Shown here piece after piece: positions 7,349-63,098 of a stretch of 64,000 bases of DNA. The position numbers and the translations under genes are program-made. The stretch's first letter is position 1. The number at the start of each line of letters is the position of its first letter. The notes under the pieces were generated by a model. It ran no database searches and had not been told where the DNA came from. It saw nothing but the letters and a program-made list of their open reading frames with translations. The DNA is from a virus (taxonomy: Duplodnaviria; Heunggongvirae; Uroviricota; Caudoviricetes): positions 35,512 to 99,511 of the IMG/VR virus record IMGVR_UViG_3300012942_000033; one strand, written 5' to 3'.

Positions 7349-7657
7349 TTAGGCTGCGATGATCTCGAGCTTCGGCGCCTTGCGGGCCGGCTTGGTCTCC
7401 GGCGTATTCGCGGCATCGAAACGAGCGATCTGGGCCGTGGTCGGAATCTTGATGCCGTTGCCGAACCGATCAGCAAACCGATCACGATCCGCTGGCATTT
7501 CGAAATCGGCAACCACGTTGGCTGCTTCCTTGTTATCGTAGGCGAAGACCGAAACCTTCAGGCCCTTGAGGTAGCTGTAGATGCGCTGACGCTCGTTCTC
7601 GTTGGAGAAACGGGCGATACCCCGGTGACGATGAGTCGTATGATTACCATTGAGCAT
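7349..7657 (-). CDS. hypothetical protein
   Basis: 102-aa ORF ending at the bidirectional terminator. Confidence 0.5.
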   Translation of the reverse strand: MLNGNHTTHRHRGIARFSNENERQRIYSYLKGLKVSVFAYDNKEAANVVADFEMPADRDRFADRFGNGIKIPTTAQIARFDAANTPETKPARKAPKLEIIAA

Positions 7658-7714
7658 TTGTTGATCTCCTTTCTGTCTCCAGTAATAACAGAGAACTGGA
7701 AAGGGTCAACCTGT

Positions 7715-25295: not shown

Positions 25296-26269
25296 CCAAA
25301 CCAGCAGTAAGAAAGGGTGATAAGTGTACGGGTCATGGCGACGCAAAGCCAAGACCTTGTGACCAGGGTTCACCTGATACTTTCATCAATGGTAAGGCAG
25401 CCCACCGCCAGGGTGACCATTGGGCAGTTCATAAAAATCATGACAGTCACCTCGCAAAAGGTTCTGATTGCGTCTTTGTGAATGGTAAGGGTCAGGGTAG
25501 GGTTGGTGATCCTATCCTTTGTGGAAGTCGGTGCCAACAAGGTAGCCCGAACGTCTTCGTAGGTGATAATTCGAGTAGTGGCGGATCAAGTCAGTCAGGC
25601 CAAGGAGCAGCTTCTGCACCAATTGATTACACCAACCCATACCGCTTTGAAGGTGGTGCTGGTGCGGATGGTTATTCGGGTTCAGGCACCATTGAGACTG
25701 AAGGCGGCGTTACTGGTGCTAGTGATTCCGATACACCAGCCTCTGATCCTGATTCACAGGAGCCACTAGACGCAAGTGATGATGACGTTGATTGGCTCAC
25801 CACGTGTATGATTGATGAGGCGGGTAATCAGAGCCAGAAGGATGCTTGGGCAGCGGTAGCCGCTGTGGTAGTAGATCGACTACAGACTGGTAGAGCGACC
25901 GGAACGGTTAATCCGGCCTGGCACGGAACTATCAAGGGTATCGTTCTAGCTAATGGTCAATTCTCGGGCTTCTACTTTGAGATGATCAACCGTCACTACA
26001 CTAGAGTCGTAGCAAGCAAGGATTGGGCGGCTGCTGAAAAACGTGGCAAACAGAAGATGGCACGATATCGTCAGCGTTCTCAATGGAATGCCTTCCATGA
26101 GGTGGCCCAACAGGTCGTCAATGGATCCTACCAGGGCGGTGCAGGCTGGAGATTAGTTAAGAGTCGCCCTGCGCTCATGTACTGTAATCTGGCCATCTCA
26201 AATCCGCCCTGGGCCACCCAGAGCAAATATGTCACTAAAATCGAGGATCACACCTTTTTCGTGGCTTGA
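25292..26269 (+). CDS. PAAR-like domain protein fused to a SleB-type cell-wall hydrolase
   Basis: N-terminus has PAAR/gp5.4-like Cys/His/Gly repeats (KGDKCTGHGD...GSPDTFINGKAAHRQGDHWAVH...VFVNGKGQGRVGDPILCGSRC...SPNVFVGDN). C-terminus has a SleB/Hydrolase_2-like segment (CMIDEAGNQS...VVVDRL...GIVLANGQFSGF). ATGA overlap with the upstream gene. Confidence 0.6.
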   Translation: MTKPAVRKGDKCTGHGDAKPRPCDQGSPDTFINGKAAHRQGDHWAVHKNHDSHLAKGSDCVFVNGKGQGRVGDPILCGSRCQQGSPNVFVGDNSSSGGSSQSGQGAASAPIDYTNPYRFEGGAGADGYSGSGTIETEGGVTGASDSDTPASDPDSQEPLDASDDDVDWLTTCMIDEAGNQSQKDAWAAVAAVVVDRLQTGRATGTVNPAWHGTIKGIVLANGQFSGFYFEMINRHYTRVVASKDWAAAEKRGKQKMARYRQRSQWNAFHEVAQQVVNGSYQGGAGWRLVKSRPALMYCNLAISNPPWATQSKYVTKIEDHTFFVA

Positions 26270-26294
26270 CATCTTGGTGTCACGTTGCTATATA
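26266..26294 (+). promoter_or_regulatory. sigma70-type promoter driving the tmRNA gene
   Basis: TTGACA (26266-26271), a 17-nt spacer, then TATATA (26289-26294). This places the transcription start near 26301, just ahead of the tmRNA acceptor piece. Confidence 0.55.
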
Positions 26295-26300
26295 GGATGG

Positions 26301-26760
26301 GCTATTGAAGACCGACGCCAAGTATCGACTAGCGGACGCGGGGGCAGTACCCGCCAGGTCCACCATAGCAAGTGACCTAGGAGCACTCGGAGCAATCCGG
26401 GCGGCGCCAACACCACCGAGGGAATCGAAGGATCTCAACCGGATCTGGGTCTTGAGGATGGTATGAGGAAGGGTGGATGAAAGTGAGGCACCGCGGAAGG
26501 CCTCATGAGTAAGGTAAGTCACTTGCTTTGCTGGGCCTGAACTTAGGATCGACGTGGAAGAGAACGGCCGAGAGAAGATCCGGGAAACCGGTGAAGCGAT
26601 GGTAGGGGTGGCACCCTGGGGAAACCCGCAAAGCCACGCATGTAAATGCAAACGACAACACTGTCGAGGTCGCTCTCGCCGCTTAATTGTGGCGCGGGTA
26701 ACCGCCTAAAGTCTTAGGGCTTCGACTCCTTAAGCGCGGTATGGTTCCACCGGGCAACAG
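26301..26760 (+). ncRNA. ssrA: circularly permuted (two-piece) tmRNA gene (ssrA); acceptor piece precedes coding piece
   Basis: The acceptor 3' end GGACGCGGGGGCAGUACCCGCCAGGUCCACCA (CCA at 26363-26365) matches the E. coli tmRNA 3' end GGACGCGGGUUCAACUCCCGCCAGCUCCACCA. Downstream, GGGCCUGAACUUAGGAUCGACGUGG (from 26533) matches the tmRNA 5' end GGGGCUGAUUCUGGAUUCGACGGG. The tag frame GCA AAC GAC AAC ACT GTC GAG GTC GCT CTC GCC GCT TAA (26648-26686) encodes ANDNTVEVALAA followed by stop. The 3' boundary is approximate. Confidence 0.8.
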
Positions 26761-26827
26761 AAAGGGCCAACCTTCCTATTACTCTTGACCTATTGGTAAA
26801 CTCCATTATTCTGCCGGGTAATGGGGT

Positions 26828-28615
26828 ATGTGGATAGATCAGGGAGACCACAGAAACCTTTATAACGGGTCGCATCCAAGGCTTACATCTCCGGAGCGGG
26901 GGTTTGCTATGTCGGATGAGCCAGTTAATTTTTCATGGATTGACCAAGCGTTGGTCTATGATCAAGACAAAGAGGAACGAGTGGATAAAGCAATCAAATC
27001 CGACATCAACATCAAGATGCTTACCGAACTCGCTCCTACTATCATATGGACGCGGAATCCTAAGTGGGATTTGACCTATATCAACTCATTCTGGTTTGAA
27101 TTCACTGGATGTCAGGATAGGCCAGTCAGTGAGATTGATTGGCAGGTCTTCATCCATCCTGATGATCTACCTACCATTACAGCTTATTGGAAGACCGCTC
27201 TTGAGCTCAACTTGGAGTTCAAGGTTGATTTTCGCCTTCGCCGCCGAGACGGTGAATATAGGTGGTTCCAATCAGTAAGCCGGCCAGTCACCAACAAAGC
27301 CGGTGAAGTCATTCAGTGGCTCGGTGTTTCGTCGATCATCCAAGACCTCAAAGAGGCACAGGAGGAGACCGAACGTCTTCGTCAGGAACTTGAGGAGAAA
27401 GTTCTCCAAAGAACCCAGGCCCTTGAGGAAGCACAGGCACAGGTTCTAGCCGAAATAAGCGCACGTCAGGCCACCCAGGATGCTCTTCGTCAAGCTCAGA
27501 AGATGGAGAGCGTGGGCCAATTAACTGGTGGCATTGCGCATGATTTCAACAACATGCTCACGGTGATCATTGGTAACCTTGAGTTACTCAAAATGAGTGC
27601 GCCCAAGTTGGGGGATAATCCAGTCGCGAAACGCATGGAACGCAATGTCAGTATGGCGATCGAAGCCTCGATTAAAGCCGAGAAGCTTACTGCTCAGTTG
27701 CTAGCGTTCTCGAGAAAAGCCCGTCTTCAGCTTGAACGTCTTGATGCCAATGCGGTCGTTGTTGGTGTCAGAGAAATGGTTGAACGAGCTGTTGGTATCG
27801 CTGTTAGTTGTGAGATCGACATACAGGATGATCTCTGGCTTTGCCTTTCGGATAAGACCCAGCTCGAGAGCGCAATCATTAACCTGGCTATCAATGCTCG
27901 CGATGCAATGCCTCTGGGTGGTAAGTTGTGTATCTCCACGGCCAACAAGGAAGTTGGTGATCTACGCTTCGTTAGTGTTTCGGTCAGCGATACCGGTCAG
28001 GGTATGAACCTAGAAACCCTGGAGAAGGCTTGCGAACCATTCTTCACCACCAAGGACGTTGGTAAGGGAAGCGGTCTTGGGCTCTCGATGGTTTATGGAT
28101 TCTGCCAGCAAAGCAATGGCAAGTTGATTCTTGAGAGCGAGGAAGGCCATGGCACTACTGTTGAAATGCTCTTCCCCTATACGGCTGGCGAAACCATTGA
28201 GGCCACCCAAGCGGAGGAAGACTTCAACTTTGATGCCAACAAACAAAGCATCCTAGTTGTTGATGATGAACCAGCGGTCAGAGAATTAGCGTGTCAGCTA
28301 TTGACTGATGCGGGGTTCAATGTCGTTAGCGCTCAAGATGGTCAGACGGCCATCAATATAGTCAAAGACCTCACCATACCACTCGACCTTCTATTCACTG
28401 ATATCGTGATGCCAGGCGGCATTGACGGATTTAGTCTAGCCAAGGTGGCCAATCAGGTACGCCCCACTCTACCTGTTATCTTTACGACTGGCCACGCGGA
28501 AGTTGCCCTCAAGGAATTGAGGAAGGATCTGTCGCAGAAGCTCAAAGTCATCGGCAAACCTTACCGGTTGAACGAGTTGAAGCAAATGATCCTTCATGAA
28601 CTGGCTATCCAGTAA
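26828..28615 (+). CDS. hybrid sensor histidine kinase (PAS, HisKA, HATPase_c and C-terminal receiver)
   Basis: PAS-like N-terminus. H-box [20 protein letters not shown]-boxes DTGQGMN and [14 protein letters not shown]. Receiver domain [12 protein letters not shown]...[14 protein letters not shown]...TTGH. The true start may be the downstream ATG (MSDEPVNF). Confidence 0.8.
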
Positions 28616-31139: not shown

Positions 31140-32876
31140 ATGTCTATCAAGTTCATTGGCTTGCTAGTCGGGCTGGCGGTCGTAGGATTCCTGATCCTCG
31201 GCATGATCATCACCCGGCTATATAAGCGAGCTTCCAAAGAGACTGCCTTCGTTCGCACCGGTATGGGCGGCCAGAAGGTGATCAAGGATGGCGGTGCGCT
31301 CGTCATTCCAGTCGTTCATGAAACCCTCGATATCAATATGCAGACCCTTCGTCTGTCGGTAAATCGCGGTGGTCAGAACGATTCGCTTATCACAAAGGAT
31401 CGCTTGCGCGTTGACGTGAATGCTGAATTCTACGTTCGGGTTGCTCCAGATACGGAGAGCATTGCTACGGCGGCTCAGACGCTTGGTCGGCGAACAATGG
31501 ATCCTAGCCAGCTAAGCACCCTCGTTGAGGGCAAGTTCGTTGACGCCCTGCGCGCTGCCGCTGCTTCGATGGATATGCAGGATCTGCATGAGAAGCGCAC
31601 CGAGTTCGTTCAGAAGGTCAAGACGACTGTTGCGGAGGATCTGAAGCAGAACGGTCTTGAACTTGAGTCGGTCTCGCTGACCAACTTGAACCAGACTGAC
31701 ATCAGTCACTTTGACGCCAACAACGCCTTCGACGCCGAGGGTCTTGCGGTCATTGCCAAGGTCACTAGTGCGCGCCGCAAGGAGCGCAATGACATCGAGA
31801 AGCAGACCGAGGTCGAAATCGAGACCAAAAATCTCGAGTCAACCAAGCGCACCTTGGAGCTCAAGCAAGAGGGTGAATTTGCTCGCCTGGATCAGGAGAA
31901 GCAGGTTCAGACTCGTGCGGCAGAGCAGGAATCGCAGCTTGCTATCGCTCGTGCGGAACGTGAACGTGAGGCGGCTGTCGCTGCTGAAGCGGCGAAGCAG
32001 GCGTCGGAACAGGCTCGTATTGAGCGTGAACGTGGCGTGAAGGTGTCTCAGACGGAAGCTGACCAGGCCACTGAACTGGCGGCTCAGGCCTCGCGTATTG
32101 CGGTTGCGGAGAAGTCAGAGGCAGAATCCAAGGCGAAGGCCAAGGCTGATGAGGCGCGAGCCGAAGCAACCAAGGCTGCTGAAAACGTGACGACCGTTTC
32201 GGCCACCGCACGAGCTGATCGTGAGGCGCAGATTGCGGTTATCGCTGCCGAGGGTGAAGCGAAGCAGAAAGCCGCGAGCATCACGGTTCAGGCCGAGGCT
32301 GAGCTCAAGGCTGCTGATTCACAGGCCAAGGCCAAGGAACGTCTCATCGAGGCTGACGCCAAGCGTTACGAGGTCGAATCCACGGGTCAGCGTTCGCTCC
32401 ATGAGGCTGGCAACGTGATCAGCCCCGAGAGCATGAACTTCCAGCTTCGGAAGGCCATGGTCGAGCGTCTGCCTGAGATCATCGAATCGATGACTAAGCC
32501 CATCGAGAAGATTGACAGCTTCCGTGTCGTTCATATGAACGGAGGCCTCAACATGGGCCATGGTGCTGCCAATGACGGCGCACCGGCTCTCGATAAGGGT
32601 AGCCTGTCGAATCAGATGACTGACGCTCTGCTGAACTATCGTATGCAGGTGCCATTCGTCGACGCGCTGGGCAAGGAACTCGGTATCGATTTCACTCAGG
32701 GCATGAATGGCATGGTGACTTCGGCGGGTCTCCCCGTTGAGGTTTCGGATCTGCCGGAAGAGCCCAAGCCCTCGATTCCGACCGAAGCACCTCGGTCTGC
32801 CACTACTCGTGAAGCCCCGCTGGCTCCTGAGGATAAGGCAGAGATCCAGAAGCTTGCTGGGATCGCCAACGGCTGA
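31140..32876 (+). CDS. flotillin-like SPFH/band-7 protein (FloT/YqiK-like)
   Basis: N-terminal transmembrane helix plus SPFH core, then a long Ala/Glu/Lys/Arg-rich coiled coil (EREAAVAAEAAKQASEQARIERE...). Confidence 0.8.
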   Translation: MSIKFIGLLVGLAVVGFLILGMIITRLYKRASKETAFVRTGMGGQKVIKDGGALVIPVVHETLDINMQTLRLSVNRGGQNDSLITKDRLRVDVNAEFYVRVAPDTESIATAAQTLGRRTMDPSQLSTLVEGKFVDALRAAAASMDMQDLHEKRTEFVQKVKTTVAEDLKQNGLELESVSLTNLNQTDISHFDANNAFDAEGLAVIAKVTSARRKERNDIEKQTEVEIETKNLESTKRTLELKQEGEFARLDQEKQVQTRAAEQESQLAIARAEREREAAVAAEAAKQASEQARIERERGVKVSQTEADQATELAAQASRIAVAEKSEAESKAKAKADEARAEATKAAENVTTVSATARADREAQIAVIAAEGEAKQKAASITVQAEAELKAADSQAKAKERLIEADAKRYEVESTGQRSLHEAGNVISPESMNFQLRKAMVERLPEIIESMTKPIEKIDSFRVVHMNGGLNMGHGAANDGAPALDKGSLSNQMTDALLNYRMQVPFVDALGKELGIDFTQGMNGMVTSAGLPVEVSDLPEEPKPSIPTEAPRSATTREAPLAPEDKAEIQKLAGIANG

Positions 32877-32906: not shown

Positions 32907-33647
32907 GTGGCAGAAGTGCCACCCCTTTCCTATCTGAGTCTTTCTGTTGTAGACATTTCGGTAGCGAGCGCTAATACTGACTCTGACATGAGGAATAGCA
33001 TGACATTACGTATCGGAGGCATCGCAGCTTTGTGTGGTGCAGTTTGTGTCTTTGTGGGTGGTATGGCTGCGTTCCCCTTACATCTTATCGGTGACCTCAT
33101 GGTCAGCACTCCACTATCTGTGGCAACGGGTGTGGGTATTTGGTATTTCTGGCCTGGCCGCAAACCAGCCAATGATATCGAGACTCTGCTGAACGATCAG
33201 GAACTCCTCAAGAATGCGACCGGTCTGAGTAAGCGAGACATCGTCGAGACAATCAGGCTAGTAAGTGATAAGTTGGATCGCATCCTCATGAGTGCTGCTC
33301 AGATAAATGAGCCTAAGGTCACACGTCGTATCCAACATCTTGATGCGATTGGTCGGAAGATCATCGACGAGTTCAGGGTGCGACCCATTGGAATCCAGAG
33401 GTCACAAACATGGATCCATGCCTACTTGGATCAAGCCATTGAGTGCGTCGACCAATATGCTCAATTACATGGATCGAAGATCCGCAATGACGAGGTGCGA
33501 CGTCAGATGGTAGAGTTTGACGATATGTTGGTCGAACTCCAGGAGAAGTCGCAGGAATTGCTTGATCTGCTACTGACCCATGATACGACGACCTTCGATG
33601 TCAATGTTTCAGTATTTCGTGATATGATGAAGAACGAGGGAATCTAA
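32907..33647 (+). CDS. membrane protein (possibly XpaC-like); start likely downstream at MRNSMTLRIGG
   Basis: Two N-terminal transmembrane segments then a helical domain. Its position directly upstream of a TelA-like gene mirrors the Bacillus xpaC–yaaN pair. Confidence 0.35.
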   Translation: MAEVPPLSYLSLSVVDISVASANTDSDMRNSMTLRIGGIAALCGAVCVFVGGMAAFPLHLIGDLMVSTPLSVATGVGIWYFWPGRKPANDIETLLNDQELLKNATGLSKRDIVETIRLVSDKLDRILMSAAQINEPKVTRRIQHLDAIGRKIIDEFRVRPIGIQRSQTWIHAYLDQAIECVDQYAQLHGSKIRNDEVRRQMVEFDDMLVELQEKSQELLDLLLTHDTTTFDVNVSVFRDMMKNEGI

Positions 33648-34810
33648 TGACCGAGGCAACTATGACGCAGACCACCCTACCAGCTCTGACTCCTGAGGCA
33701 TCTCAGGTCTTGGATTCAACCTCGCTGGTTAGTTTGGCGCCGGCAGGCTCAGCGATTCAGATCACGAGTGTTTCTGAAGAGCGAGCCAAGGAGTTGGCTC
33801 AGAAGATCAACATCCACGACACACAGAGCATTATCGGCTTCGGTGTTGAAGCCCAGAAGGGTGTGACCCAGCTGAGTGAACAGATGCTTGAGGGTGTGCG
33901 AACCAAGGATACTGGCCCGGCTGGTGAAGCCCTCAACCTTATGGTTCATGAGATGCGTGGGCTGGATTTCAGCAAGCTCACATCCAAGCAAGGTTTGGTG
34001 GCGAGGATCCTCCACAAGGCCAGCAAGGTCACGCTATTCCTCGAGCAGTATGAAACGGTTCAATCGAAGATCAACAAGACCCAAGCGGTTCTTGATAGTC
34101 ACCGTATCCAGATGCTTCGTGGAGTGAAGGTGCTTGATCTGCTCTACAAGAAGACCCTCGAACTCCTGTATAACCTGGATGAGCAGATCGCAGCCGTTCA
34201 ATATAAACTCAACGAGGTCAACGCTAAGGATATCCCCGAGGCAAATGAGAAGGCCCAGCAGACCAAGGATATGGCTGACACCCAAGCGGCTGCTGATTTG
34301 ATCCAAGCTCGTGATGCCTTGGAGCGAAAGCTTCATGATCTACAGCTGAACCGCCAGATCACCATCCAGGCCCTACCTAGCATTCGTATCGTTCAATCCA
34401 ACGAAGTCGGTCTTTCGGAGAAGATCCAAGGCCAGATCCTCAACGCTTTGCCTCTTTGGAAGCGTAATATCGCACTAGCAGTCGAAATGGCGAAGACGCA
34501 GAATGCTGCCAAGGCCACCAAAGCAGCTAGTGATTTTACCAATGAACAGCTTCGTATTGGTGCGCAGATGCTTCAGCAATCCAACCTAGCGGTTCGAACT
34601 GAAATCGAGCGCGGTATGGTTGACATTGACAGCGTCAAGTTTGCCAACGATCAGTTGATCCAGACTATTGAGGATACGATCACGATCGCTCAGGAGGGTA
34701 AGAATATGCGAGCCCAGGCGGAACAGGAGCTCGCCCAGGCCGAGCAGAAGCTCAAGGAAACGCTTCTGAGCGCTGCTAATCGACAGGCGAATATGAAGGC
34801 TCTCGCGTAA
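33647..34810 (+). CDS. TelA-like (toxic anion resistance) family protein
   Basis: 387 aa, helical, with TelA-like conserved segments (IGFGVEAQKGVTQLSEQML, LNLMVHEMRGLDFSKL). ATGA overlap with the upstream gene. Confidence 0.55.
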   Translation: MTEATMTQTTLPALTPEASQVLDSTSLVSLAPAGSAIQITSVSEERAKELAQKINIHDTQSIIGFGVEAQKGVTQLSEQMLEGVRTKDTGPAGEALNLMVHEMRGLDFSKLTSKQGLVARILHKASKVTLFLEQYETVQSKINKTQAVLDSHRIQMLRGVKVLDLLYKKTLELLYNLDEQIAAVQYKLNEVNAKDIPEANEKAQQTKDMADTQAAADLIQARDALERKLHDLQLNRQITIQALPSIRIVQSNEVGLSEKIQGQILNALPLWKRNIALAVEMAKTQNAAKATKAASDFTNEQLRIGAQMLQQSNLAVRTEIERGMVDIDSVKFANDQLIQTIEDTITIAQEGKNMRAQAEQELAQAEQKLKETLLSAANRQANMKALA

Positions 34811-37291: not shown

Positions 37292-38263
37292 ATGGGTCGT
37301 CCAGTAGACAAGCAATTCTTTGGCCCAGATGCCATCCAATGTATTGCCAACGTGGGCAATGGTGAGGCAGCTGGATATATTGTTAAGCAGACCGCTTCTA
37401 GTGAGTTCCTCGTGAATGCCGGTGGTACCGAGAAGAAGTGTCACCTGGTTAACAAGGCCCCTGCTGATCTCCTGGTCGGCGAGATGGTGATTACCGTTCA
37501 GCTCGCTGATGATACTGTAGCCACGGTAACCACACTTAAGGGTCACAAGCTCACGACATCGCAGGGAAATCAGGTTGTCTGGAATACTGGTGTTCCAAGC
37601 AATCCAGCACCTGTCGCGGTGAGCACAAATGACGACGTGGTTCCTTTCCCCGATGCCACTCCGGTCGCTCCAACTGTTACTGAGAATGGCTCGATTTCGA
37701 CCAAATTCACGGCCGATAACCGTATGCTCGTAGGCACGGGAAACCCAATCAACAACATGATGATTGCTACTGACGGAGTGATCGAGGTTGCCATCGGCGC
37801 TCACTTGTACAATGATAGCAATGTGCCTGCCTCAGTTGATTCCAAGTACACCATGCAGTTGGCAACTGGTATCCAGGATAGCCTGGGCAATCCTAAGGAT
37901 AACAAGTGGGTCTATGCTTACAGCATTGGCCTGAAGCAGAACCCAAACCTCAAGGCTATCACTGACCTCTACGATGTGACGGCAAGCCTTAAGAAGGATG
38001 ATGCTGAGGTAGCTACCTTGACTCTAGAGAAGGCTGATGATAGCCTGCAGTTCGTCTTTGGTATCGCGGATAACGATCCAATCACTGATAGCTATGTGGG
38101 TACGCACCTAGAAGTCATCCAGAATACAGAGCGTTTCGACTTCATTGATTCCTCGTACACCGATGGTAGCTATTCGGTTTCGTTCACCGCAACCCCAAAG
38201 GGTGTTGGTGATCCAGTAACTGCGGCATTTACCGTAGAAGTCGCTGCTCCTGTAGCACCGTAA
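37292..38263 (+). CDS. structural protein, paralog of 36260..37210
   Basis: Shares the N-terminal MGRPVDKQFFG...VGNGEAAGYIVKQT...C.LVNK...DLLVGEM module. Strong Shine-Dalgarno AGGAGGAG. A terminator follows. Confidence 0.65.
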   Translation: MGRPVDKQFFGPDAIQCIANVGNGEAAGYIVKQTASSEFLVNAGGTEKKCHLVNKAPADLLVGEMVITVQLADDTVATVTTLKGHKLTTSQGNQVVWNTGVPSNPAPVAVSTNDDVVPFPDATPVAPTVTENGSISTKFTADNRMLVGTGNPINNMMIATDGVIEVAIGAHLYNDSNVPASVDSKYTMQLATGIQDSLGNPKDNKWVYAYSIGLKQNPNLKAITDLYDVTASLKKDDAEVATLTLEKADDSLQFVFGIADNDPITDSYVGTHLEVIQNTERFDFIDSSYTDGSYSVSFTATPKGVGDPVTAAFTVEVAAPVAP

Positions 38264-38268
38264 TTGAG

Positions 38269-38294
38269 AATGGCGGGGAGATCTCCCCGCCATT
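38269..38294 (+). terminator. rho-independent terminator
   Basis: AATGGCGGGGAG-ATCT-CTCCCCGCCATT followed by GTCTTG. Confidence 0.6.
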
Positions 38295-38310
38295 GTCTTG
38301 AGTGAAATTC

Positions 38311-38373
38311 TGGTTGACACCTGCCACTCCTATGTTAGTTCTGGTTTATCGGAAGACAAGGAGATCGAAAATG
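38311..38373 (+). promoter_or_regulatory. conserved promoter/leader cassette (TGGTTGACAC-N11-TATGTT ... AAGGAGATCGA-start)
   Basis: TTGACA at 38314-38319, an 11-nt spacer, TATGTT at 38331-38336, and an AAGGAGATCGA Shine-Dalgarno site before the ATG at 38371. Near-identical cassettes occur at 41057-41117 and 62271-62327. The GTTGACAC box also occurs at 43441 and 47144. Confidence 0.45.
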
Positions 38374-39507
38374 GCCGAGGGCAGAACCTACAATATCCCC
38401 GCAGTTCGTTTCGATTGGTTCAAGGCCAAGCTAGAGACTCTTGGTCGTAAGGCCAAGAAACTCAACGGTGATCGTCTGTTCTGTACGGTTGTTGGCTTCC
38501 ACAACGAGGAGGATACTGCCTCGCGTTGGCACGGTCAGAAGATCATGGAGGTCTTCGTAGCCTGCCCCGAACCCAAGCTCGAGGGTTGGGAATTTGTCGC
38601 CCGGATCGATCACGCACATGAAGTTGGCAACATCGTGCGCACCACTGGCTTGCGTAACCTTCCGGAGATTTACCGAGATCGTGGCCCCGTTTGTGATCAT
38701 TGTGGTCACAAGCGTCAGCGGCGCGATACCTTTGTGGTATTCAAGGAAGACGAGGGATTCAAGCAGGTTGGCAGCTCATGCCTTAAGGATTTCTTGGGTC
38801 ATGGTGATGCTGATCGTATAGCGAAGCTGGCTGAACTCCTGGCCAACATTCACGGTTTCATGCGTGGTTCCTATGATGGCGATATTGGCCTCCAGGATCG
38901 CCGCTACATTGACCTCGAGGATTACCTCGCCTACGTGGCTCAAGAGGTTCTCTACTACGGCTTCGTGAGTAAGAAGCTGGCCTACGAGACTGGTAAGGAA
39001 TCAACGGCTGAGCTGGCCCTGAGGAACTACCATAGCACCAAGGTTAAGCGCCCCACACAACAGCATCATGATATTGCGGCAGCGGCGCTCAATTGGGCAC
39101 AGAATCTCGACGAGACCGAGACCCAACCGCTGAACGATTACCTCCACAACGCCTGGGTGATCGCCAATACGGTAGCCATTGAAGATCGCAGCACTGGCAT
39201 TGCGGCCAGCATTGTGGGCGTATATATGCGGAACCAGCAGCCCAAGTCGACTGTAGTGAGCCAGCATATCGGCACGGTCGGTCAGAAGTTGGAGATCGAG
39301 TTGAAGGTCATCGATGCGCGCATCCTCGACAGCGGTTCCATCCTTCATACCTTCCACGATGTGGCGGGGAATGTCGTGAAGTGGTTCGCGAGCAACGCTC
39401 AGCTGGAGCGTAATCGGGTCTATAAGATCCAAGCAACCGTGAAGGCCCATAATGTCTACAAGGGCAAGAACGAGACGCTGTTGACGCGTTGTAAGGAAGC
39501 CCGGTGA
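38371..39507 (+). CDS. hypothetical protein
   Basis: Start placed at MAEGRTYNIP behind the conserved Shine-Dalgarno site. Confidence 0.55.
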   Translation: MAEGRTYNIPAVRFDWFKAKLETLGRKAKKLNGDRLFCTVVGFHNEEDTASRWHGQKIMEVFVACPEPKLEGWEFVARIDHAHEVGNIVRTTGLRNLPEIYRDRGPVCDHCGHKRQRRDTFVVFKEDEGFKQVGSSCLKDFLGHGDADRIAKLAELLANIHGFMRGSYDGDIGLQDRRYIDLEDYLAYVAQEVLYYGFVSKKLAYETGKESTAELALRNYHSTKVKRPTQQHHDIAAAALNWAQNLDETETQPLNDYLHNAWVIANTVAIEDRSTGIAASIVGVYMRNQQPKSTVVSQHIGTVGQKLEIELKVIDARILDSGSILHTFHDVAGNVVKWFASNAQLERNRVYKIQATVKAHNVYKGKNETLLTRCKEAR

Positions 39508-40470: not shown

Positions 40471-41055
40471 ATGGATCGAATTACTACAGGTGAGCCTTAC
40501 GGTAAGTTGATTCATCGCCATGTCAGTCGTAAATGGCAGACACCTGAACTCAAGGAATGGTGGTATTCAAAGTTCACTATGAGCCTGCGCAAGAAACTAG
40601 CCAAACTACATCATCGCCAGAATGGTCTTTGTATCTTCTGTGGCTGTGAAACCTGGCTCGCCATTGAGGGCGTAAAGAAACAGAACCCACCACCTGGAAT
40701 GCTATTAAAACAAATGGCTACTGCGGATCACAAGATTCCTCAGAGTCTCGGTGGCACTAACCGGATGACCAACCTGGCCATGGCGTGTATCCGTTGTAAC
40801 AATGATCGACAGACCACGCCATTTGAGGAATTTCTTGAAGTTCGTCAGGATCCAGTGAAATGGAAGGCTCGCAATCGTAAGCTCACCGCCAAGTATCAAC
40901 AGAATGCGGCCAAGCGTAAGAAGAATTCAGAGGCTCGCCGTAATGCTTTGGTCTGGAAGCTGGCGGTGTTATTCTACCTTCGGCCCGATCTTATACCAAC
41001 CGAAGAAGATATGGCAAGAGAATACGAACGACGAGCACGATACCGACGCCGATAA
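40471..41055 (+). CDS. HNH endonuclease
   Basis: CIFCGC...ADHKIPQSLGG...NLAMACIRCNNDRQ matches the HNH motif with a zinc-binding Cys pair. Confidence 0.7.
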   Translation: MDRITTGEPYGKLIHRHVSRKWQTPELKEWWYSKFTMSLRKKLAKLHHRQNGLCIFCGCETWLAIEGVKKQNPPPGMLLKQMATADHKIPQSLGGTNRMTNLAMACIRCNNDRQTTPFEEFLEVRQDPVKWKARNRKLTAKYQQNAAKRKKNSEARRNALVWKLAVLFYLRPDLIPTEEDMAREYERRARYRRR

Positions 41056-41056
41056 C

Positions 41057-41117
41057 TGGTTGACACTCACCAGTCTGGTGCTAGATCTAGCCTTGAGACA
41101 ACAAGGAGATCGACGTG
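41057..41117 (+). promoter_or_regulatory. conserved promoter/leader cassette (second copy)
   Basis: TGGTTGACAC...ACAAGGAGATCGAC-GTG. The -10-like element is weaker here (GGTGCT). Confidence 0.35.
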
Positions 41118-42242
41118 CTGAATAAGCTGATGACACCGGAGACGAAGAAGCTGAGCAAGGCCTTTGACATGGCCGGCTTCGAAATCCGTTTCGTCGGCGG
41201 CTGCGTTCGGGACGTTCTGCTGGGTGTTGAACCCAAGGATGTGGATTTCTGCACTGACGCCACTCCTGACGAGATGCGCGATATCGCGGTAATCAACAAG
41301 TTCAAGTTCCTGCCCACTGGCATCGATCACGGCACCGCAACCATCGTAGTTGATGGTGAGCCCTTTGAGGTCACCACCCTGCGCGTTGATGCGGAGACTG
41401 ATGGTCGTCATGCCAAGGTCGAGTTCACCAGGGATTTTGAACTGGATGCCGAGAGGCGTGACCTGACCATCAACGCAATGTCGATGGATACAAAGGGCAA
41501 TCTCTTCGACTATTTCGGTGGCCAGGAGGATCTGAAGAACAAGGTCGTGCGGTTCGTCGGTGATGCGAAGACGCGCATCGAGGAGGATTACCTGCGTATC
41601 CTGCGTTACTTCCGTTTCGCGGCTCGGTTCGATGCACAGATGGATCAGGAGACGCTGGATATCTTCAGCGATCCTGAAGTGCTGGCTGGTCTGAATCGAG
41701 TTAGTGTTGAGCGGTTCTGGTTGGAGATGTCAAAGCTGCTGACCTATAGCGCTCGGGTGCGAGTCATGGAGGCTATCTTTGGCACTGGCGTCAATGCTTC
41801 GTTGAATCTGTTTCGGTTCGAGCCCAATGAGCTGAGCCGGGCCGATGATGCGGTGGCCGCATTGGCAACGCTGATCTCGAGCGACGACGAGGAGCGGTTC
41901 TTCCAAATCTGGAAGATGAGCTCTCCGGAGGAGGCAAAGGTTCGCAACATGATCCGTAACCGCGGTGGGTTCCTGGATGAAGTGCGCGTTGAGGTCATGC
42001 TGACCCGCGATAAGTTCCCCAGGGATCACGTGGTGAGCCTGGCTCTGGTCGCCAGTGAGCCCACGCTGGCTCAACATGCTAGGGATTTTGTTGTTCCGAC
42101 CTTCCCCATTACGGGTAAGGATCTGATGGGTGTTGGTATGGCTCCAGGCCCACAGATGGGTCAGCGCCTGCGTCGGATGGAAGCAGCCTGGGTTGATAGC
42201 CGGTGGAACCTGGCCAAGGAAGCCCTGATGGAGATCGAGTAA
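41115..42242 (+). CDS. CCA-adding tRNA nucleotidyltransferase / poly(A) polymerase family protein
   Basis: Class II nucleotidyltransferase head motifs: FVGGCVRDVLLG, DVDFCTDATPDE, GIDHGTATIV, RRDLTINAMS. GTG start. Confidence 0.8.
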   Translation: MLNKLMTPETKKLSKAFDMAGFEIRFVGGCVRDVLLGVEPKDVDFCTDATPDEMRDIAVINKFKFLPTGIDHGTATIVVDGEPFEVTTLRVDAETDGRHAKVEFTRDFELDAERRDLTINAMSMDTKGNLFDYFGGQEDLKNKVVRFVGDAKTRIEEDYLRILRYFRFAARFDAQMDQETLDIFSDPEVLAGLNRVSVERFWLEMSKLLTYSARVRVMEAIFGTGVNASLNLFRFEPNELSRADDAVAALATLISSDDEERFFQIWKMSSPEEAKVRNMIRNRGGFLDEVRVEVMLTRDKFPRDHVVSLALVASEPTLAQHARDFVVPTFPITGKDLMGVGMAPGPQMGQRLRRMEAAWVDSRWNLAKEALMEIE

Positions 42243-43149: not shown

Positions 43150-43445
43150 TTAGGGGATATCATACACTCACTGAACTTGAGAACCAGGTTCGATCTCTCG
43201 TAGATAGGCTCGCTCTAACCAAGGATACCAAATACCATCGAGGAGCTCGCTTTGATTACAAGATCCAGCCAGACTGGAAGGCCATGTATAAGTTCAGGAG
43301 AGCCAACACGGCCAGACGCACATGTCTGCTGATCAATTGGTGTGACAAGCATTGCCAGGGTGATTACTCATATGATGGCCTGCCCGTAGGATTTAGCTTC
43401 AAGGTCAAGAGCGATGCCATGCTATTCAAGCTAGCTTGGGGTTGA
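43140..43445 (+). CDS. FKL-WG family small protein (WCDKHCQGDY plus AMLFKLAWG)
   Basis: Carries both the central W-C-x-x-H-C-x-G-D-Y motif and the C-terminal motif. Confidence 0.6.
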   Translation: MGMIRGYHTLTELENQVRSLVDRLALTKDTKYHRGARFDYKIQPDWKAMYKFRRANTARRTCLLINWCDKHCQGDYSYDGLPVGFSFKVKSDAMLFKLAWG

Positions 43446-43475
43446 CACTTAACAGGAATATGGTAGACACCTGGT

Positions 43476-43835
43476 ATGTATGATATTGAAGTGATCGACG
43501 GCCACAATTACGCGATAATCAACGAGGGGTCACCCTCGTATGAATTCCTGAAGGCCATGAACGCCAAGCTGGTCATGAAAAAGCTGGCAAGTGAACCAGG
43601 CGAGAAGATCTACCTGACCGCCAGTGAAGTCGGCCAACTTTGCCGAGGCTTCCAACGCAAAGACCTCAAGCGCCTGATGGATGTGGATCTGATTGAATAT
43701 GATCGTGAGCGGGTCTTTGAGGTATCAACCTCGACCTCCTACTATGAGGAATCCTACACCTTCACAGATTACGGCCTCGAGGTGATGAAGTTTATCAAGG
43801 CCGAAGGTGGTGATGTGGAGATCCGCCTCAACTAG
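43476..43835 (+). CDS. hypothetical protein
   Basis: 119-aa ORF preceded by a TTGACAC-N11-TATGGT motif (43443-43465). Confidence 0.5.
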   Translation: MYDIEVIDGHNYAIINEGSPSYEFLKAMNAKLVMKKLASEPGEKIYLTASEVGQLCRGFQRKDLKRLMDVDLIEYDRERVFEVSTSTSYYEESYTFTDYGLEVMKFIKAEGGDVEIRLN

Positions 43836-47106: not shown

Positions 47107-47193
47107 GTAGCATTAGGTTGGGTTAAGGGCAAGGTATTTACCGCGTTGACACCTGGCTCATAGGTGTTAAAGCGGAGAGAATAAGGAGTTACG

Positions 47194-47646
47194 ATGGCTT
47201 TGGTTGATCCAGAACGACCGGAAGATCAGATGGCTTTACTCGATGAAGCCAGCATCTACTTCCTGCGAGCAATCAAGCAGCATTATACCCGAGATACATC
47301 ACTTGATGTAATGGAAGCCCTTACGCCCATTCTGGGTAAGGATTGGAAGGGGCGGATCATCTTTGGTCTGATGGCGAATAAGCACCAGGCCATTAGGGCT
47401 ATCAGTATTAACCGTATGACTGCCCCTGCACTTGTGAATAAGATCAAGGCAATCAAGGAAGTTCGAGCAATCAGTCGGTTGGGTCTCGTTGAAGCTAAGA
47501 CTCTTGTTGAGGCGGCGTATGAGCGCTCACAGGTTGTTAAGGTGGCTGAGCAGCCCGAAACCATGTCTCAGGATAGTTGGAATCTGATCCTAAGCAATAG
47601 TATCAACGCCATCAAGGATGCTGGCTTTAGAGTGGAGATCTCATGA
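47194..47646 (+). CDS. hypothetical protein
   Basis: 150-aa ORF with a GTTGACAC box upstream (47144-47152). Confidence 0.5.
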   Translation: MALVDPERPEDQMALLDEASIYFLRAIKQHYTRDTSLDVMEALTPILGKDWKGRIIFGLMANKHQAIRAISINRMTAPALVNKIKAIKEVRAISRLGLVEAKTLVEAAYERSQVVKVAEQPETMSQDSWNLILSNSINAIKDAGFRVEIS

Positions 47647-59361: not shown

Positions 59362-60618
59362 ATGAGTGAAACCAAAAAGAATCTGAGCTGCTCTTTCTGT
59401 AGCAAGCGACAGGAAGACGTTCAGAAGCTAATTGCTGGCCCTGATGTTTTCATCTGTAATGATTGCGTTCAGCTTTGCGCAGATATCCTCAAAGAGGATG
59501 AGGGCGCGATTGCTTCCTTGGGTTTCAAAGACGGTATTCCTAGCCCTCGCCAGATCAAGGAGTTCCTGGATCAGTATGTGATTGGGCAGGATGAGGCCAA
59601 AATGGTCATGGGTGTTGCGGTTCATAATCATTACAAGCGTCTGGCCAATCCAGTCGTTGATGATGTTGAACTCGAGAAATCCAATATCCTCCTACTTGGC
59701 CCCACCGGCTCCGGTAAGACCCTGATGGCTCGAAGCATTGCGAAGCTTCTTGATGTGCCTTTCACGATTGCTGATGCGACCAGCCTCACTGAAGCAGGTT
59801 ATGTGGGTGATGATGTCGAGACGATCATCACACGCCTACTCCAAGTCTGTGATAATGATGTATCGAAGGCAGAGCGTGGTATCATCTACCTGGATGAGGT
59901 GGATAAGAAGGCTAAGAGGGGTGATTCTGCTTCCATTAGTCGTGATGTCTCGGGTGAAGGCGTCCAACAAGCCCTCCTCAAGATCATTGAGGGTAGTGAA
60001 GTTCGAGTTCCAGTAACGGGTAACCGCAAACATCCTAATGCCGAAATGGCGGTCGTAAACACCAAGAATATCCTCTTCATTGTTGGTGGGGCCTTCGTGG
60101 GTCTCGACGATATTGTGGCCAAACGCCTCAACAAGAATCGAAGCGGCATTGGTTTTGGGGCGGCGATCCAAATGGCTTCTGATCCAAAGAAAGCAGCTAG
60201 CGAGGCTTTCCTCAAAATGGTCGAACCAGAGGATCTAACCAAGTTCGGTCTGATACCTGAACTAGTGGGCCGTCTTCCGGTTATTACCAATCTAGAAGAG
60301 CTAGATCAGGATCAAATGGTTAAGGTACTCACTGAACCCAAGAACGCGCTAGTGAAGCAATTCCAGAAGCAGTTCCAACTCGCTGGGGTTCAATTGGAAT
60401 TCGATGAGGATGCCTTGAGGGCAATCGCCAAGGATGCGATTATCCGTAAGACTGGAGCACGTGGTCTTCGAAGCGTTATCGAAAAGCGCTTGATCAAGGT
60501 CCAATTTGATCTACCTGATCTCAAGGCTCAAGGGGCCCATGCGGTTCGAGTAAGTCAGGATGTCATTACTGGTTCGGCCGAACCACTCGTCGTTTATGAG
60601 AAAGCGGCCAATGAATGA
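59362..60618 (+). CDS. clpX: ATP-dependent Clp protease ATP-binding subunit ClpX
   Basis: N-terminal C4 zinc-binding domain (CSFCSKRQEDVQKLIAGPDVFICNDCVQLC). Walker A LLLGPTGSGKTLMA. ClpX-type IGF-loop region and sensor motifs. Confidence 0.85.
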   Translation: MSETKKNLSCSFCSKRQEDVQKLIAGPDVFICNDCVQLCADILKEDEGAIASLGFKDGIPSPRQIKEFLDQYVIGQDEAKMVMGVAVHNHYKRLANPVVDDVELEKSNILLLGPTGSGKTLMARSIAKLLDVPFTIADATSLTEAGYVGDDVETIITRLLQVCDNDVSKAERGIIYLDEVDKKAKRGDSASISRDVSGEGVQQALLKIIEGSEVRVPVTGNRKHPNAEMAVVNTKNILFIVGGAFVGLDDIVAKRLNKNRSGIGFGAAIQMASDPKKAASEAFLKMVEPEDLTKFGLIPELVGRLPVITNLEELDQDQMVKVLTEPKNALVKQFQKQFQLAGVQLEFDEDALRAIAKDAIIRKTGARGLRSVIEKRLIKVQFDLPDLKAQGAHAVRVSQDVITGSAEPLVVYEKAANE

Positions 60619-60678
60619 TTGACACCAATTACGCTCGTGTTAATCTCCCCGTTATCTATAGGAAAGGAAGTACTGCCT

Positions 60679-61197
60679 GTGAGTTCTAATTATGCGGTGA
60701 ATGACCAAATCCGAGCAAGGGAGGTCAGACTCATCGCCGACAATGGTGAGCAAGTTGGAGTCATTTCAACCATTGAGGCTCGCCGCCGGGCTAATGATGC
60801 CGGCTTGGATCTAGTAGCCATCAATATCAGCAACGGGGTTCCGATCTGTAAGATCCTCGATTATGGCAAGTTCAAATATGATCAGAGCCGTAAGGATCGC
60901 GAGAATGCGAAAAAGAATCGCGAATCACGAGTAGAGCTCAAAGAGATCCAGCTCAGGCCCACCACAGACAGTAATGATATAGCGATCAAAGCCAAAAGAG
61001 CTCAAGGCTTCCTCGAGGATGGCAATAAGGTCAAAGTCATCCTGAAATTCAAAGGGCGTGAGATCACTCACATGGATGTTGGCGCACAGGTAATGCAGAC
61101 CTTCCTTGCCAGCCTGAGTGACTACAAACTGGAACGCCCGGTAAGCCGCAGCGAACGGCAACTTTTTACGATCTTGGTGCCTCTCCCCAAGAAGTAA
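60679..61197 (+). CDS. infC: translation initiation factor IF-3
   Basis: Aligns along its length with E. coli IF3: IRAREVRLI vs IRAQEVRLT, GLDLVAIN...PICKILDYGKFKYDQSRK vs GVDLVEIS...PVCRIMDYGKFLYEKSK, and KEIQLRPTTD...KFKGREITHMDVG vs KEIKFRPGTD...RFRGREMAHQQIG. The start is probably non-ATG (GTG at 60679 behind GGAAAGGAAG); the TTG at 60619 is the alternative. Confidence 0.8.
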   Translation: MSSNYAVNDQIRAREVRLIADNGEQVGVISTIEARRRANDAGLDLVAINISNGVPICKILDYGKFKYDQSRKDRENAKKNRESRVELKEIQLRPTTDSNDIAIKAKRAQGFLEDGNKVKVILKFKGREITHMDVGAQVMQTFLASLSDYKLERPVSRSERQLFTILVPLPKK

Positions 61198-61951: not shown

Positions 61952-62270
61952 TGAGACCCAGAAGAGCCAAAAGGCAGACATTCTGAAGAAGACCGACAAA
62001 ATGATCCGGGTTGCCATCCAGGGCACCAGCATCACATTCAATCTTACTCGGAGTGATACCCGTCGGCCATACGTTGGAAGTCTACATGGCCTCGAGTTCA
62101 CAACAAACGGCTGATCCAAAGGCGTCACAGACGCTCAAAGAAGCTCATCACAAGGGTTGGCTCGCCGGTGTAGCCTTGCGTCTAGGATGCGGCGGAGCCC
62201 CTCGAAACCCCTATCACAGGGATGATGAAGAGTATCTCTATTGGGAGATTGGCTTCGAGGAAGGTATCGC

Positions 62271-62327
62271 TGGTTGACACCCTGGCTTCCTATGTTAGTC
62301 TGAGCCTAAACATAGGAGATCGACTTG
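62271..62327 (+). promoter_or_regulatory. conserved promoter/leader cassette (third copy)
   Basis: TTGACA at 62274-62279, an 11-nt spacer, TATGTT at 62291-62296, then CATAGGAGATCGAC-TTG. The leader can form the TCCTATGTT/AACATAGGA hairpin. Confidence 0.45.
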
Positions 62328-63098
62328 AAACTGCTCTTACAACTGGATCTTACGCCGATTGTGGAATCCATCCTAAAGGGTGAGTTTCCAGATAATGATC
62401 TGACTGTTGATCAACAGGTCGCGCTTGTGAATCAAGCAGCACATGACCTGGTGGCGTTGGGTGGTGTCGATGACCCTGAAGCCATAATGGAGCAAGTCAA
62501 CAACTTGGCTCTCTGGCTGGGTGGTCTCCATGCTGATATCCAGGTTTATGCCTGGCAACTAATTCGTCGAGTCAAGCATATTGGCGTTCTGGCCGATGAT
62601 AAGACCGCAGTTCGTCTTAGGCCATTGGAGGAAAAGATCTTCCAGGATACACCCTATGAGGCCGAGAGCTTTGAGGATCTGAACCATTACGCTTGGCCCA
62701 AGACGTTCTTGGATGGTAGCACGTTTGAGGATCGTCTTGAGGCGGTCTTCAAACAACAGCTTCAAGACGATCCACCGGAGATAGTTTCACCGGATATGAT
62801 CCTCAACGGTATCGGTCACGATACCGTGCTCAATTTCAGCGATGCTTACGCACAGACCTCGGCATGTTGTCATACTCTTTCGGAGAGCAAAGACTATAAG
62901 CCCGAGAAGGGTAAACTAGCCAATATGCGATATCATGAGCGCATGGATAATTTTCTAGGCTGGCTCGCCAATCAGGAGCCCGAGATTGCGATCTTTGGTT
63001 TGAGAACCATCCTGGTTATTTTTCGCCTCCTCGTAGATCCTAGCAAGTTGACCAATTGGGAAAAGTTCAGTGATTATGCTGATCTTCTTCCTAAATAG
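62325..63098 (+). CDS. hypothetical protein (TTG start)
   Basis: 257-aa ORF behind the conserved cassette. Confidence 0.5.
   Translation: MKLLLQLDLTPIVESILKGEFPDNDLTVDQQVALVNQAAHDLVALGGVDDPEAIMEQVNNLALWLGGLHADIQVYAWQLIRRVKHIGVLADDKTAVRLRPLEEKIFQDTPYEAESFEDLNHYAWPKTFLDGSTFEDRLEAVFKQQLQDDPPEIVSPDMILNGIGHDTVLNFSDAYAQTSACCHTLSESKDYKPEKGKLANMRYHERMDNFLGWLANQEPEIAIFGLRTILVIFRLLVDPSKLTNWEKFSDYADLLPK

Follow-up and report, generated by a model that had tools for sequence, protein, structure and literature searches.

In a stretch of viral DNA of 64,000 nt (IMG/VR record IMGVR_UViG_3300012942_000033, positions 35,512 to 99,511; hereafter the window), three functionally unrelated genes are each preceded by a similar cassette of about 60 nt that ends at the start codon. 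This raises the question of what the cassettes are, how often they recur and what reads them. A preliminary description of the window had seen in them a promoter and leader unit reminiscent of the activator-dependent middle promoters of T4-type phages. We examined the cassettes within the window, in metagenomic relatives and in the complete genome of a cultured relative.

The source phage and its relatives

The G+C content of the window is about 49%. As a megablast search with 12 kb of the window found no close DNA match among the GenBank phages, relatives were sought at the protein level. According to Pfam and PHROG, the window encodes a DnaB-type helicase, a class I ribonucleotide reductase, T4-type topoisomerase II subunits and ClpX, as well as IF3, a CCA-adding enzyme, PAS and histidine-kinase proteins, flotillin and TelA. 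One of the window proteins was also present on an ENA metagenome contig. The large topoisomerase subunit had 70% identity to its counterpart in Sinorhizobium phage Phosso (469 kb) and 60% identity to that of Agrobacterium phage Atu_ph07 (490 kb), and the gene order of the window matched that of both phages. The window also carries a two-piece tmRNA of the alphaproteobacterial type. Judged by the topoisomerase identity, the synteny and the tmRNA, the window is a piece of an uncultured jumbo phage of the ~0.45-Mb class, belonging to the Atu_ph07/Phosso clade and probably infecting an alphaproteobacterium. It covers only about one-seventh of such a genome.

Jumbo phages of this group do not encode an RNA polymerase and require the host core enzyme (PMC7824862), which they use together with a gp55-like late sigma (PMC7824862, PMC6102473). 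For Atu_ph07, only a gp55-like late sigma factor has been reported (PMC6102473). Promoters are never mentioned in the published descriptions of Atu_ph07 (PMC6102473) and AP-J-162 (PMC11242549), and a literature search for promoter studies in rhizobiophages found nothing relevant.

Cassettes in the window

The three cassettes were found where they had been described, at 38311-38373 (ATG 38371), 41057-41117 (GTG 41115) and 62271-62327 (TTG 62325), and so were two extra GTTGACAC sites, upstream of the genes that start at 43476 and 47194. The cassettes had been called near-identical. They do share blocks of sequence, but the overall identity among the three is just 68-74%, so that they are similar rather than near-identical. 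In the alignment of the three, identity was concentrated in three blocks: CTGGTTGACAC, TGnTAG and AGGAGATCGA. Exact matches to GGTTGACAC numbered four in the window, all on the plus strand. There were also four exact matches to AGGAGATCGA, three of them within the cassettes. The fourth, at 10612, was rejected as a cassette member; it is in-frame coding sequence without a promoter and appears to be a coincidence.

The pattern TTGACA-N13-TGNTA occurred exactly six times in the window against 0.14 expected, and none of 100 dinucleotide shuffles reached six matches. All six sites were on the plus strand, each with a same-strand start codon 34-61 nt downstream. A further two sites, 7709(-) and 26266(+), are looser members, the latter before the tmRNA. 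All eight window sites are co-oriented with the same-strand start codon or RNA gene that they precede by 34-61 nt. With a weight matrix trained solely on sites of the relatives, six window sites scored above 10 bits, compared with 0.43 in shuffles, and all of these were 48-61 nt before a same-strand start. An E. coli-style promoter scan of the window did not exceed chance (12 vs 18.3; 23 vs 24.1) and missed every cassette, because it demanded a T at -7. The sites and one neighboring element are as follows, with transcription starts being predictions.

7655-7713, minus strand: looser member; -35 TTGACC at 7709-7704, TGt, -10 TATTAC at 7687-7682, AAAGGAGATCAA, ATG at 7657
26262-26301, plus strand: related promoter with a 17-nt spacer; -35 TTGACA at 26266-26271, TGc, -10 TATATA at 26289-26294
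38266-38297, plus strand: stem-loop resembling an intrinsic terminator, sequence AATGGCGGGGAGATCTCCCCGCCATT; closes gene 37292-38263 and insulates cassette 1
38310-38373, plus strand: cassette 1; -35 TTGACA at 38314-38319, TGn at 38333-38335, -10 TAGTTC at 38336-38341, predicted transcription start at about 38348, Shine-Dalgarno AAGGAG at 38358-38363, ATG at 38371
41056-41117, plus strand: cassette 2; -35 at 41060-41065, TG at 41079-41080, -10 TAGATC at 41082-41087, AGGAGATCGA at 41104-41113, GTG at 41115
43438-43478, plus strand: promoter of the same class; -35 at 43442-43447, -10 TAGACA at 43464-43469, ATG at 43476
47142-47196, plus strand: promoter of the same class; -35 at 47146-47151, -10 TAAAGC at 47168-47173, Shine-Dalgarno AAGGAG, ATG at 47194
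60615-60681, plus strand: promoter of the same class; -35 at 60619-60624, -10 TAATCT at 60641-60646, Shine-Dalgarno AGGAAAGGAAG, GTG at 60679
62270-62327, plus strand: cassette 3; -35 at 62274-62279, -10 TAGTCT at 62296-62301, AGGAGATCGA at 62314-62323, TTG at 62325

Cassette 1 precedes gene 38371-39507 (phrog_2319, function not assigned), cassette 2 precedes the tRNA nucleotidyltransferase (CCA-adding enzyme) gene, and the gene behind cassette 3 encodes a 257-aa protein without a family match. The product of the gene at 47194 has a ribosomal L7/L12 C-terminal-like domain, and that of the gene at 60679 is a homologue of translation initiation factor IF3. The minus-strand site reads TTGACC...TGtTATTAC...AAAGGAGATCAAcaaATG and scored 14.1 bits with the weight matrix. 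Behind it lies gene 7349-7657, which encodes a 102-aa protein without an assigned function and adjoins a PAS-domain protein; the equivalent site in Phosso, 332454(-), also adjoins the PAS protein of that phage. Modules of promoter, leader and ribosome-binding site thus stand before functionally unrelated genes and define a co-regulated set, as the preliminary description had suggested.

The promoter at 26266 would drive the two-piece tmRNA gene, and its predicted start, 26301, is the first base of the Rfam tmRNA_permuted match. This coincidence lends indirect support to the placement of the predicted starts. The gene at 43476 has no Shine-Dalgarno sequence upstream, and since the predicted transcription start is the ATG itself, the transcript is predicted to be leaderless.

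The stem-loop in front of cassette 1 has 14 pairs, seven of which show compensatory changes among five orthologues (RNAalifold). Upstream of gene 37292-38263, which this stem-loop closes, stands a conserved (A/G)CTAAATA element. The positions of these elements suggest the order late-type promoter, gene 37292-38263, terminator, sigma-70-type promoter and next gene.

The -35 box, the spacer and the extended -10 region

The upstream box had been said to resemble a -35 hexamer, and it does contain a perfect TTGACA. The exact hexamer is present in seven of the eight window sites (TTGACC in the eighth) and is kept in the orthologues. The hexamer TATGTT, taken earlier for a -10-like element only 11-12 nt from the box, proved to be set in the wrong frame: conservation downstream of the box falls on TGnTA. 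At the first two positions of TATGTT, paralogues and orthologues differ (TA, GG, CG, TC, CC, GA, CA, TG); among the aligned window sites alone these positions read TA, GG, TA, GG and CG. By comparison, TG, and TA one base later, are invariant in all eight window sites. In the orthologous promoters of the relatives TG was kept in most cases and replaced by TT in three (L121, L122, L123); the Phosso site set and one set from the relatives had been picked by the TGnTA pattern and are no test of TG conservation. Read in the corrected frame, the element appears as TTGACA(C), a 16-nt spacer, an extended -10 TGn (-15 to -13) and a TA(G/A)nnn hexamer. Seven window sites have a 16-nt spacer, and in the tmRNA promoter it measures 17 nt. 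A spacing of 16 nt is within the standard sigma-70 range.

Within the hexamer, T-12 and A-11 are invariant in the window sites. At -7, T is present in just two of the eight and C is commonest (e.g. TAGTTC, TAGATC and TAAAGC), as in the Caulobacter consensus GCtANAWC, to which GCTAGATC of cassette 2 is a perfect match. Because most of them lack T-7, the -10 hexamers of the window would make a poor E. coli promoter. Conservation also extends beyond the needs of sigma-70, to CTGG before the -35 box and to TCCTR at -20 to -16 (in Phosso and in cassettes 1 and 3). These two elements and the shift at -7 may reflect host-specific preferences of RpoD or selection for very strong promoters.

Conservation in metagenomic relatives and Atu_ph07

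For three genes, namely the cassette-1 gene, the CCA enzyme gene and the L7/L12-like gene, IMG/VR contigs contain orthologues with 46-74% amino-acid identity, and these carry the promoter at the equivalent position. GGTTGAC, the 16-nt spacing, TGnTA (with TG in most) and AGGAGATC(G/A)A (as AGGAGATCGA) are kept, and the spacer and leader sequences diverge. The boxes and the spacing of cassette 1 are kept in L119-L123, in which the sequence of the spacer varies. The promoter of cassette 2 is conserved before orthologous CCA genes in L124-L128, Atu_ph07 and Phosso, and that at 47146 in L131-L133. The IF3 genes of Atu_ph07 and Phosso also have a positionally equivalent promoter upstream. Our search for relatives found none of the cassette-3 gene (62325-63098), so there is no phylogenetic footprint for this cassette. 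A scan of IMG/VR with the pattern GGTTGACAC-N12-TGNTAG gave at least 118 loci, mostly by chance; only L009 and L045 matched the window.

Genome-wide search in Phosso

The earlier description had proposed a genome-wide motif search and expected enrichment upstream of start codons. Such enrichment holds in the window, and also throughout the genome of the cultured relative Phosso, which we assembled from annotated 50-kb pieces. Exact sites with a 16-nt spacer numbered 39 in Phosso, whereas shuffles gave an expectation of 0.75. When the spacer was varied, one site was found at 14 nt, one at 15, 39 at 16, five at 17, four at 18 and two at 19, which is a sharp optimum at 16 nt. Among the 44 sites with 16- or 17-nt spacers, 40 have a Shine-Dalgarno sequence and an ORF start downstream on the same strand (within 90 nt, ORF of at least 35 codons), compared with 19% of random positions. 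Start codons typically lie 19-31 nt from the -10 hexamer.

The Phosso consensus is tGGTTGACA-N8-tCCTgTGTTAg..T. Here T-7 is conserved (1.1 bits, about 36 of the 44 sites), and the hexamer is of the textbook T-12/A-11/T-7 type preceded by TGn. A hairpin between TCCT in the spacer and AGGA in the hexamer was considered and rejected, because positions 3-5 of the hexamer carry almost no information.

The targets in Phosso comprise small hypothetical ORFs, enzymes of nucleic-acid and nucleotide metabolism, translation-related genes and a tRNA. The CCA, PNK, IF3 and HNH genes are among those with the promoter upstream, as are ligases and others; no annotated structural gene lies behind any of the Phosso sites. 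At one site the predicted start falls some 4 nt ahead of tRNA-Gln, which also supports the predicted starts indirectly. The late-like motif of the window, ACTAAATA, was not enriched in Phosso.

Leader and ribosome-binding site

The predicted 5′ leaders are 0-27 nt long. Their ribosome-binding site is usually AGGAGATC(G/A)A, placed 6-7 nt before ATG, GTG or TTG. AGGAGATC is a favoured form of the ribosome-binding site in this clade and is not unique to the cassettes. In Phosso, GGAGATC occurs 126 times, and 62 copies have a correctly placed start codon; 15 of these 62 lie behind one of the 44 promoters, a clear enrichment at promoter-proximal genes. The possibility that ATCGA after AGGAG extends the pairing to the 3′ end of 16S rRNA was rejected by comparison with the usual anti-Shine-Dalgarno sequence.

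Proposed recognition by host RpoD

We infer that the cassettes are -35/extended -10 promoters read by the RpoD (sigma-70 type) of the host, each followed by a short leader and usually by a strong ribosome-binding site, and we give this reading a probability of about 0.8. The boxes agree with known RpoD consensus sequences: CTTGAC-N17-CTATAT in S. meliloti (PMC2873474), CTTGNN-N18-TATNNT in A. tumefaciens (PMC3384568) and TTGaCgS / GCtANAWC in Caulobacter (PMC13004042, PMC8144410). Promoters with a -35 box and TGn are an established sigma-70 class, and T4 early promoters combine UP, -35, TGn and -10 elements (PMC2988021). With this agreement and with no alternative reader found in the window or in Phosso, recognition by the host RpoD holoenzyme is the best-supported mechanism. 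The holoenzyme would bind through sigma region 4 (at -35), region 3 (at TGn) and region 2 (at -12/-11), and transcription would start about 7 nt past the hexamer without any phage factor. If the host polymerase suffices, the class would drive pre-replicative, probably early, genes. In the window these would be the genes for IF3, the CCA-adding enzyme, the L7/L12-like protein, the tmRNA and several proteins without an assigned function. The early timing is proposed from the presumed recognition by host RpoD and by analogy with T4 early promoters and the predicted RpoD-like promoters of phage CBB.

Like T4 early promoters (PMC2988021), the cassettes exist in many copies, have excellent host sigma-70 elements including TGn, show conservation past the canonical boxes, stand before pre-replicative genes and genes without an assigned function, and would be read by the unmodified host polymerase. 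They differ from T4 early promoters in that an A/T-rich UP element is not evident, the spacer keeps a constant length of 16 nt, the -10 of the window lineage is weak past T-12/A-11, and the host is probably alphaproteobacterial. The Rak2-like jumbo phage vB_PcaM_CBB (PMC5259590) belongs to the same broad group, does not have a phage RNA polymerase and has a gp55-like late sigma. It combines a TTGACA-type class with a T4-late-like ATAAATA class, and the window likewise has (A/G)CTAAATA. However, CBB has a UP-like element and an RpoD-like sigma, neither of which was found in Phosso or the window, and we did not observe its third class (-35 TGAAACG). In addition, the promoters of CBB cluster in one early region, whereas those described here are scattered through the genome. 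Alphaproteobacterial housekeeping promoters share with the phage sites the TTGAC of the -35 box and a -10 region beginning (G/T)(C/T)TA, with TAnnnT in the Phosso sites. In the phage sites, TTGAC follows G instead of C, the TG at -15/-14 is invariant in the window, the spacing is one base shorter than in the S. meliloti consensus, and the information content is far higher than that of typical host promoters.

These results chart one promoter class concretely for the little-studied clade of ~470-kb phages of Rhizobiales-type hosts. The class is a sigma-70-type -35/extended -10 class and not an exotic activator-dependent one, and nothing fundamental changes in the understanding of phage transcription. 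It would mark the genes that can be expressed with the unmodified host polymerase, and among them are parts of translation: IF3, the CCA-adding enzyme, the L7/L12-like protein, the tmRNA and a tRNA. The cassettes are also compact candidate parts, promoter plus ribosome-binding site, for strong expression in alphaproteobacteria.

Alternative readings

The conservation of CTGG and TCCTR suggests that an additional factor could be involved. The class might be a clade-specific dialect of about 30 bp (CTGGTTGACA-N8-TCCTR-TGnTAG, with fixed 16-nt spacing) joined to a fixed AGGAGATCGA leader, with either of two extra roles. We consider this unlikely. If true, the dialect might double as a site of recombination by which genes are shuffled in ~470-kb rhizobiophage-like genomes, in the manner of PeSLs, or a phage factor might recognise the extra conserved positions and thereby tune early transcription or shut it off.

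The cassettes might, besides acting as promoters, be mobile regulatory modules like the PeSLs of T4-type phages, with recombination between copies shuffling the flanking genes. PeSLs combine strong sigma-70-like early promoters with stem-loops and are repeated upstream of ORFans (PMC2839356, PMC4122927). The cassettes are likewise repeated intergenic modules, on the scale of ~60-100 nt, with a sigma-70-like promoter that often precedes ORFans: there are eight sites in the window and 44 in Phosso, many of the latter before small hypothetical ORFs, though the CCA enzyme, IF3, PNK and ligase genes are also among the targets. The copies share blocks of identity over ~60 nt, and cassette 1 directly follows the covarying stem-loop. 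Homology to IMGVR contig 3300012942_000037 resumes at 41056, the first base of cassette 2, after an indel of about 350 nt behind an HNH gene. However, this is the only one of three homology breakpoints against that contig to coincide with a cassette, and the evidence for recombination is confined to it. Stem-loops of note were found at no window cassette other than cassette 1; they are not the regular component that they are in PeSLs. Moreover, the identity blocks are short (9-11 nt) and would be a poor substrate for homologous recombination, and the retention of promoters at orthologous genes across distant relatives indicates stability over mobility. Taken with these points, mobility of the cassettes seems rather improbable.

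The motif might instead be read by a sigma-70-family factor encoded by the phage, like CBB_513 of CBB. RpoD-like sigmas are encoded by some group 2 jumbo phages (PMC7824862, PMC5259590), and the conserved CTGG and TCCTR could reflect a specialised sigma. Nevertheless, a tblastn search with regions 2-4 of E. coli RpoD gave no match better than E = 0.28 in the complete Phosso genome, in spite of its 39 motif copies, and none in the 64-kb window. The same query detects the sigmas of other phages at E values of 1e-21 to 1e-41. This search was run locally on the assembled Phosso genome, as one over the whole phage collection was uninformative for the clade. Among the Pfam and PHROG matches listed for 94 window ORFs there was no member of the sigma, MotA or AsiA families, and the Phosso annotation names no MotA, AsiA or RpoD-like sigma. 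The single gp55-like late sigma reported for Atu_ph07 also speaks against such a reader. In addition, a phage whose virion carries no RNA polymerase depends on promoters that are recognised by the host enzyme as it stands, and enrichment was seen for no further sigma-70-like motif. Given its absence from Phosso, a phage-encoded sigma as the reader is very unlikely; in the phage of the window itself, a sigma or co-activator might be encoded outside the 64 kb.

In the preliminary description, the cassettes were likened to MotA-box-like, activator-dependent promoters. The GTTGACAC box would then be an activator box 11-12 nt from TATGTT, read only after a phage co-activator has remodelled sigma region 4. 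GTTGACAC does lie 11 nt from TATGTT in cassettes 1 and 3, and the general layout of a conserved box upstream of a TGn/-10 region is that of T4 middle promoters, about half of which also have TGn (PMC2988021). In T4 middle promoters, however, the place of the -35 element is taken by a MotA box with its centre at -30 (PMC2988021). The phage box, (C)TGGTTGACAC, is centred at about -33, contains no TGCTT and does not fit (a/t)3TGCTT(t/c)A, and it includes a perfect -35 hexamer, lacking in T4 middle promoters, at the canonical distance from the -10. Furthermore, it is TGnTA and not the TATGTT frame that is conserved, and the spacing to the real hexamer has its sharp optimum at 16 nt. A tblastn search for MotA and AsiA with T4 queries, run on the window and on the complete Phosso genome, gave no match at E ≤ 1; this search has limited sensitivity for very divergent homologues and covers the window phage over 64 kb only. 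As all of its testable defining features fail, this reading is highly improbable.

The imperfect inverted repeat formed by TTGACAC and GTGTTAA, a near-palindrome (TTGACAC-N11-GTGTTAA) at 47146 and 60619, might suggest an operator for a dimeric DNA-binding protein, but the other members are not palindromic, conservation is asymmetric (invariant TTGACA versus TGnTA on the other side) and every site points towards its downstream gene from a fixed short distance, as is expected of a directional element, so that we rejected it on the asymmetry and the strict co-orientation as scarcely credible.

A reading related to the dialect, and likewise unlikely, concerns the -7 base. Its shift from T in Phosso to C in the window lineage may track the RpoD type of the host, and if it does, this base could help to infer the hosts of uncultured jumbo phages.

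Translation-related targets

Half of the promoters of the class in the window (four of the eight -35/TGn/-10 sites) serve translation-related functions. They were the promoters of the following genes:

41115-42242, CCA-adding enzyme
47194-47646, protein with an L7/L12 C-terminal-like domain
60679-61197, IF3
26262-26772 (+), two-piece (permuted) tmRNA of alphaproteobacterial type (Rfam)

In Phosso, the cultured relative, one site of this class was located ~4 nt upstream of a tRNA-Gln gene. The tmRNA scored 98.8 bits with RF01849 and 70.3 bits with RF04321, the latter match beginning at 26301, and its tag peptide is ANDNTVEVALAA. From its sequence, the tmRNA gene is predicted to have its own promoter, TTGACA-N17-TATATA. 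As the tmRNA occupies 26262-26772 (+), the overlapping ORF 26280-26651(-) in the crude gene list is probably spurious.

For the promoter at 43442, the predicted transcription start coincides with the ATG of gene 43476-43835, and no Shine-Dalgarno sequence was found ahead of this ATG (window 43464-43478). The mRNA of this gene is thus a candidate leaderless mRNA.

Promoter positions compared between the window and Phosso

We compared the final base of the -10 hexamer between the window cassettes (promoter/leader modules) and the Phosso assembly (loci L130 and L134-L143). In the window lineage this base was mostly C (TAGATC, TAGTTC, TAAAGC), in agreement with the Caulobacter consensus GCtANAWC, whereas in Phosso it was T in ~36 of the 44 sites. 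The choice between C and T may be a signature of the host RpoD type.

Two other elements were present both in the Phosso sites and in cassettes 1 and 3 of the window. CTGG was frequent ahead of the -35 element, and TCCT(A/G) was kept at about -20 to -16, directly 5′ of TGn, where each position in Phosso carries 0.6-0.8 bits of information. The presence of TCCT(A/G) is not explained by pairing with the -10 hexamer.

The 5′ edge of cassette 2 was examined against the related IMG/VR contig 3300012942_000037.

Within 40471-41056, HNH endonuclease gene, its end abutting cassette 2

The stop codon of this gene, TAA, is followed immediately by CTGGTTGACAC of the cassette. Homology to the contig was lost at 40988 and returned exactly at 41056, and the contig carries ~350 additional nt between the corresponding breakpoints.

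A second, late-like motif

Another promoter-like motif, ACTAAATA, occurred seven times in the window against 0.95 expected, always on the + strand. Motif counting placed the copies as follows:

3017, 6855, 12289, 16994, 19366, 37252 and 59327 (+), ACTAAATA

Six of them lie 30-45 nt 5′ of starts, among them the start of the RNR large-subunit gene and that of gene 37292, and a hairpin often precedes the copies. The motif is similar to T4-type late (gp55) promoters. Enrichment of ACTAAATA was sought in Phosso and not found; (A/G)CTAAATA is kept upstream of the gene 37292 orthologues in IMG/VR loci L119-L123.

Other genes of the window

Two genes of the window are unusual sensory equipment for a virus: one (7715-9376, - strand) is for a protein in which four PAS domains are present, the other (26828-28615, + strand) for a hybrid PAS histidine kinase that has a receiver domain. 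A PAS protein is also present at the syntenic position in Phosso. A flotillin/SPFH protein (31140-32876) and a TelA-like protein (33647-34810) are near neighbours on the + strand with gene 32907-33647 between them, and Phosso genes 492-494 have the identical arrangement.
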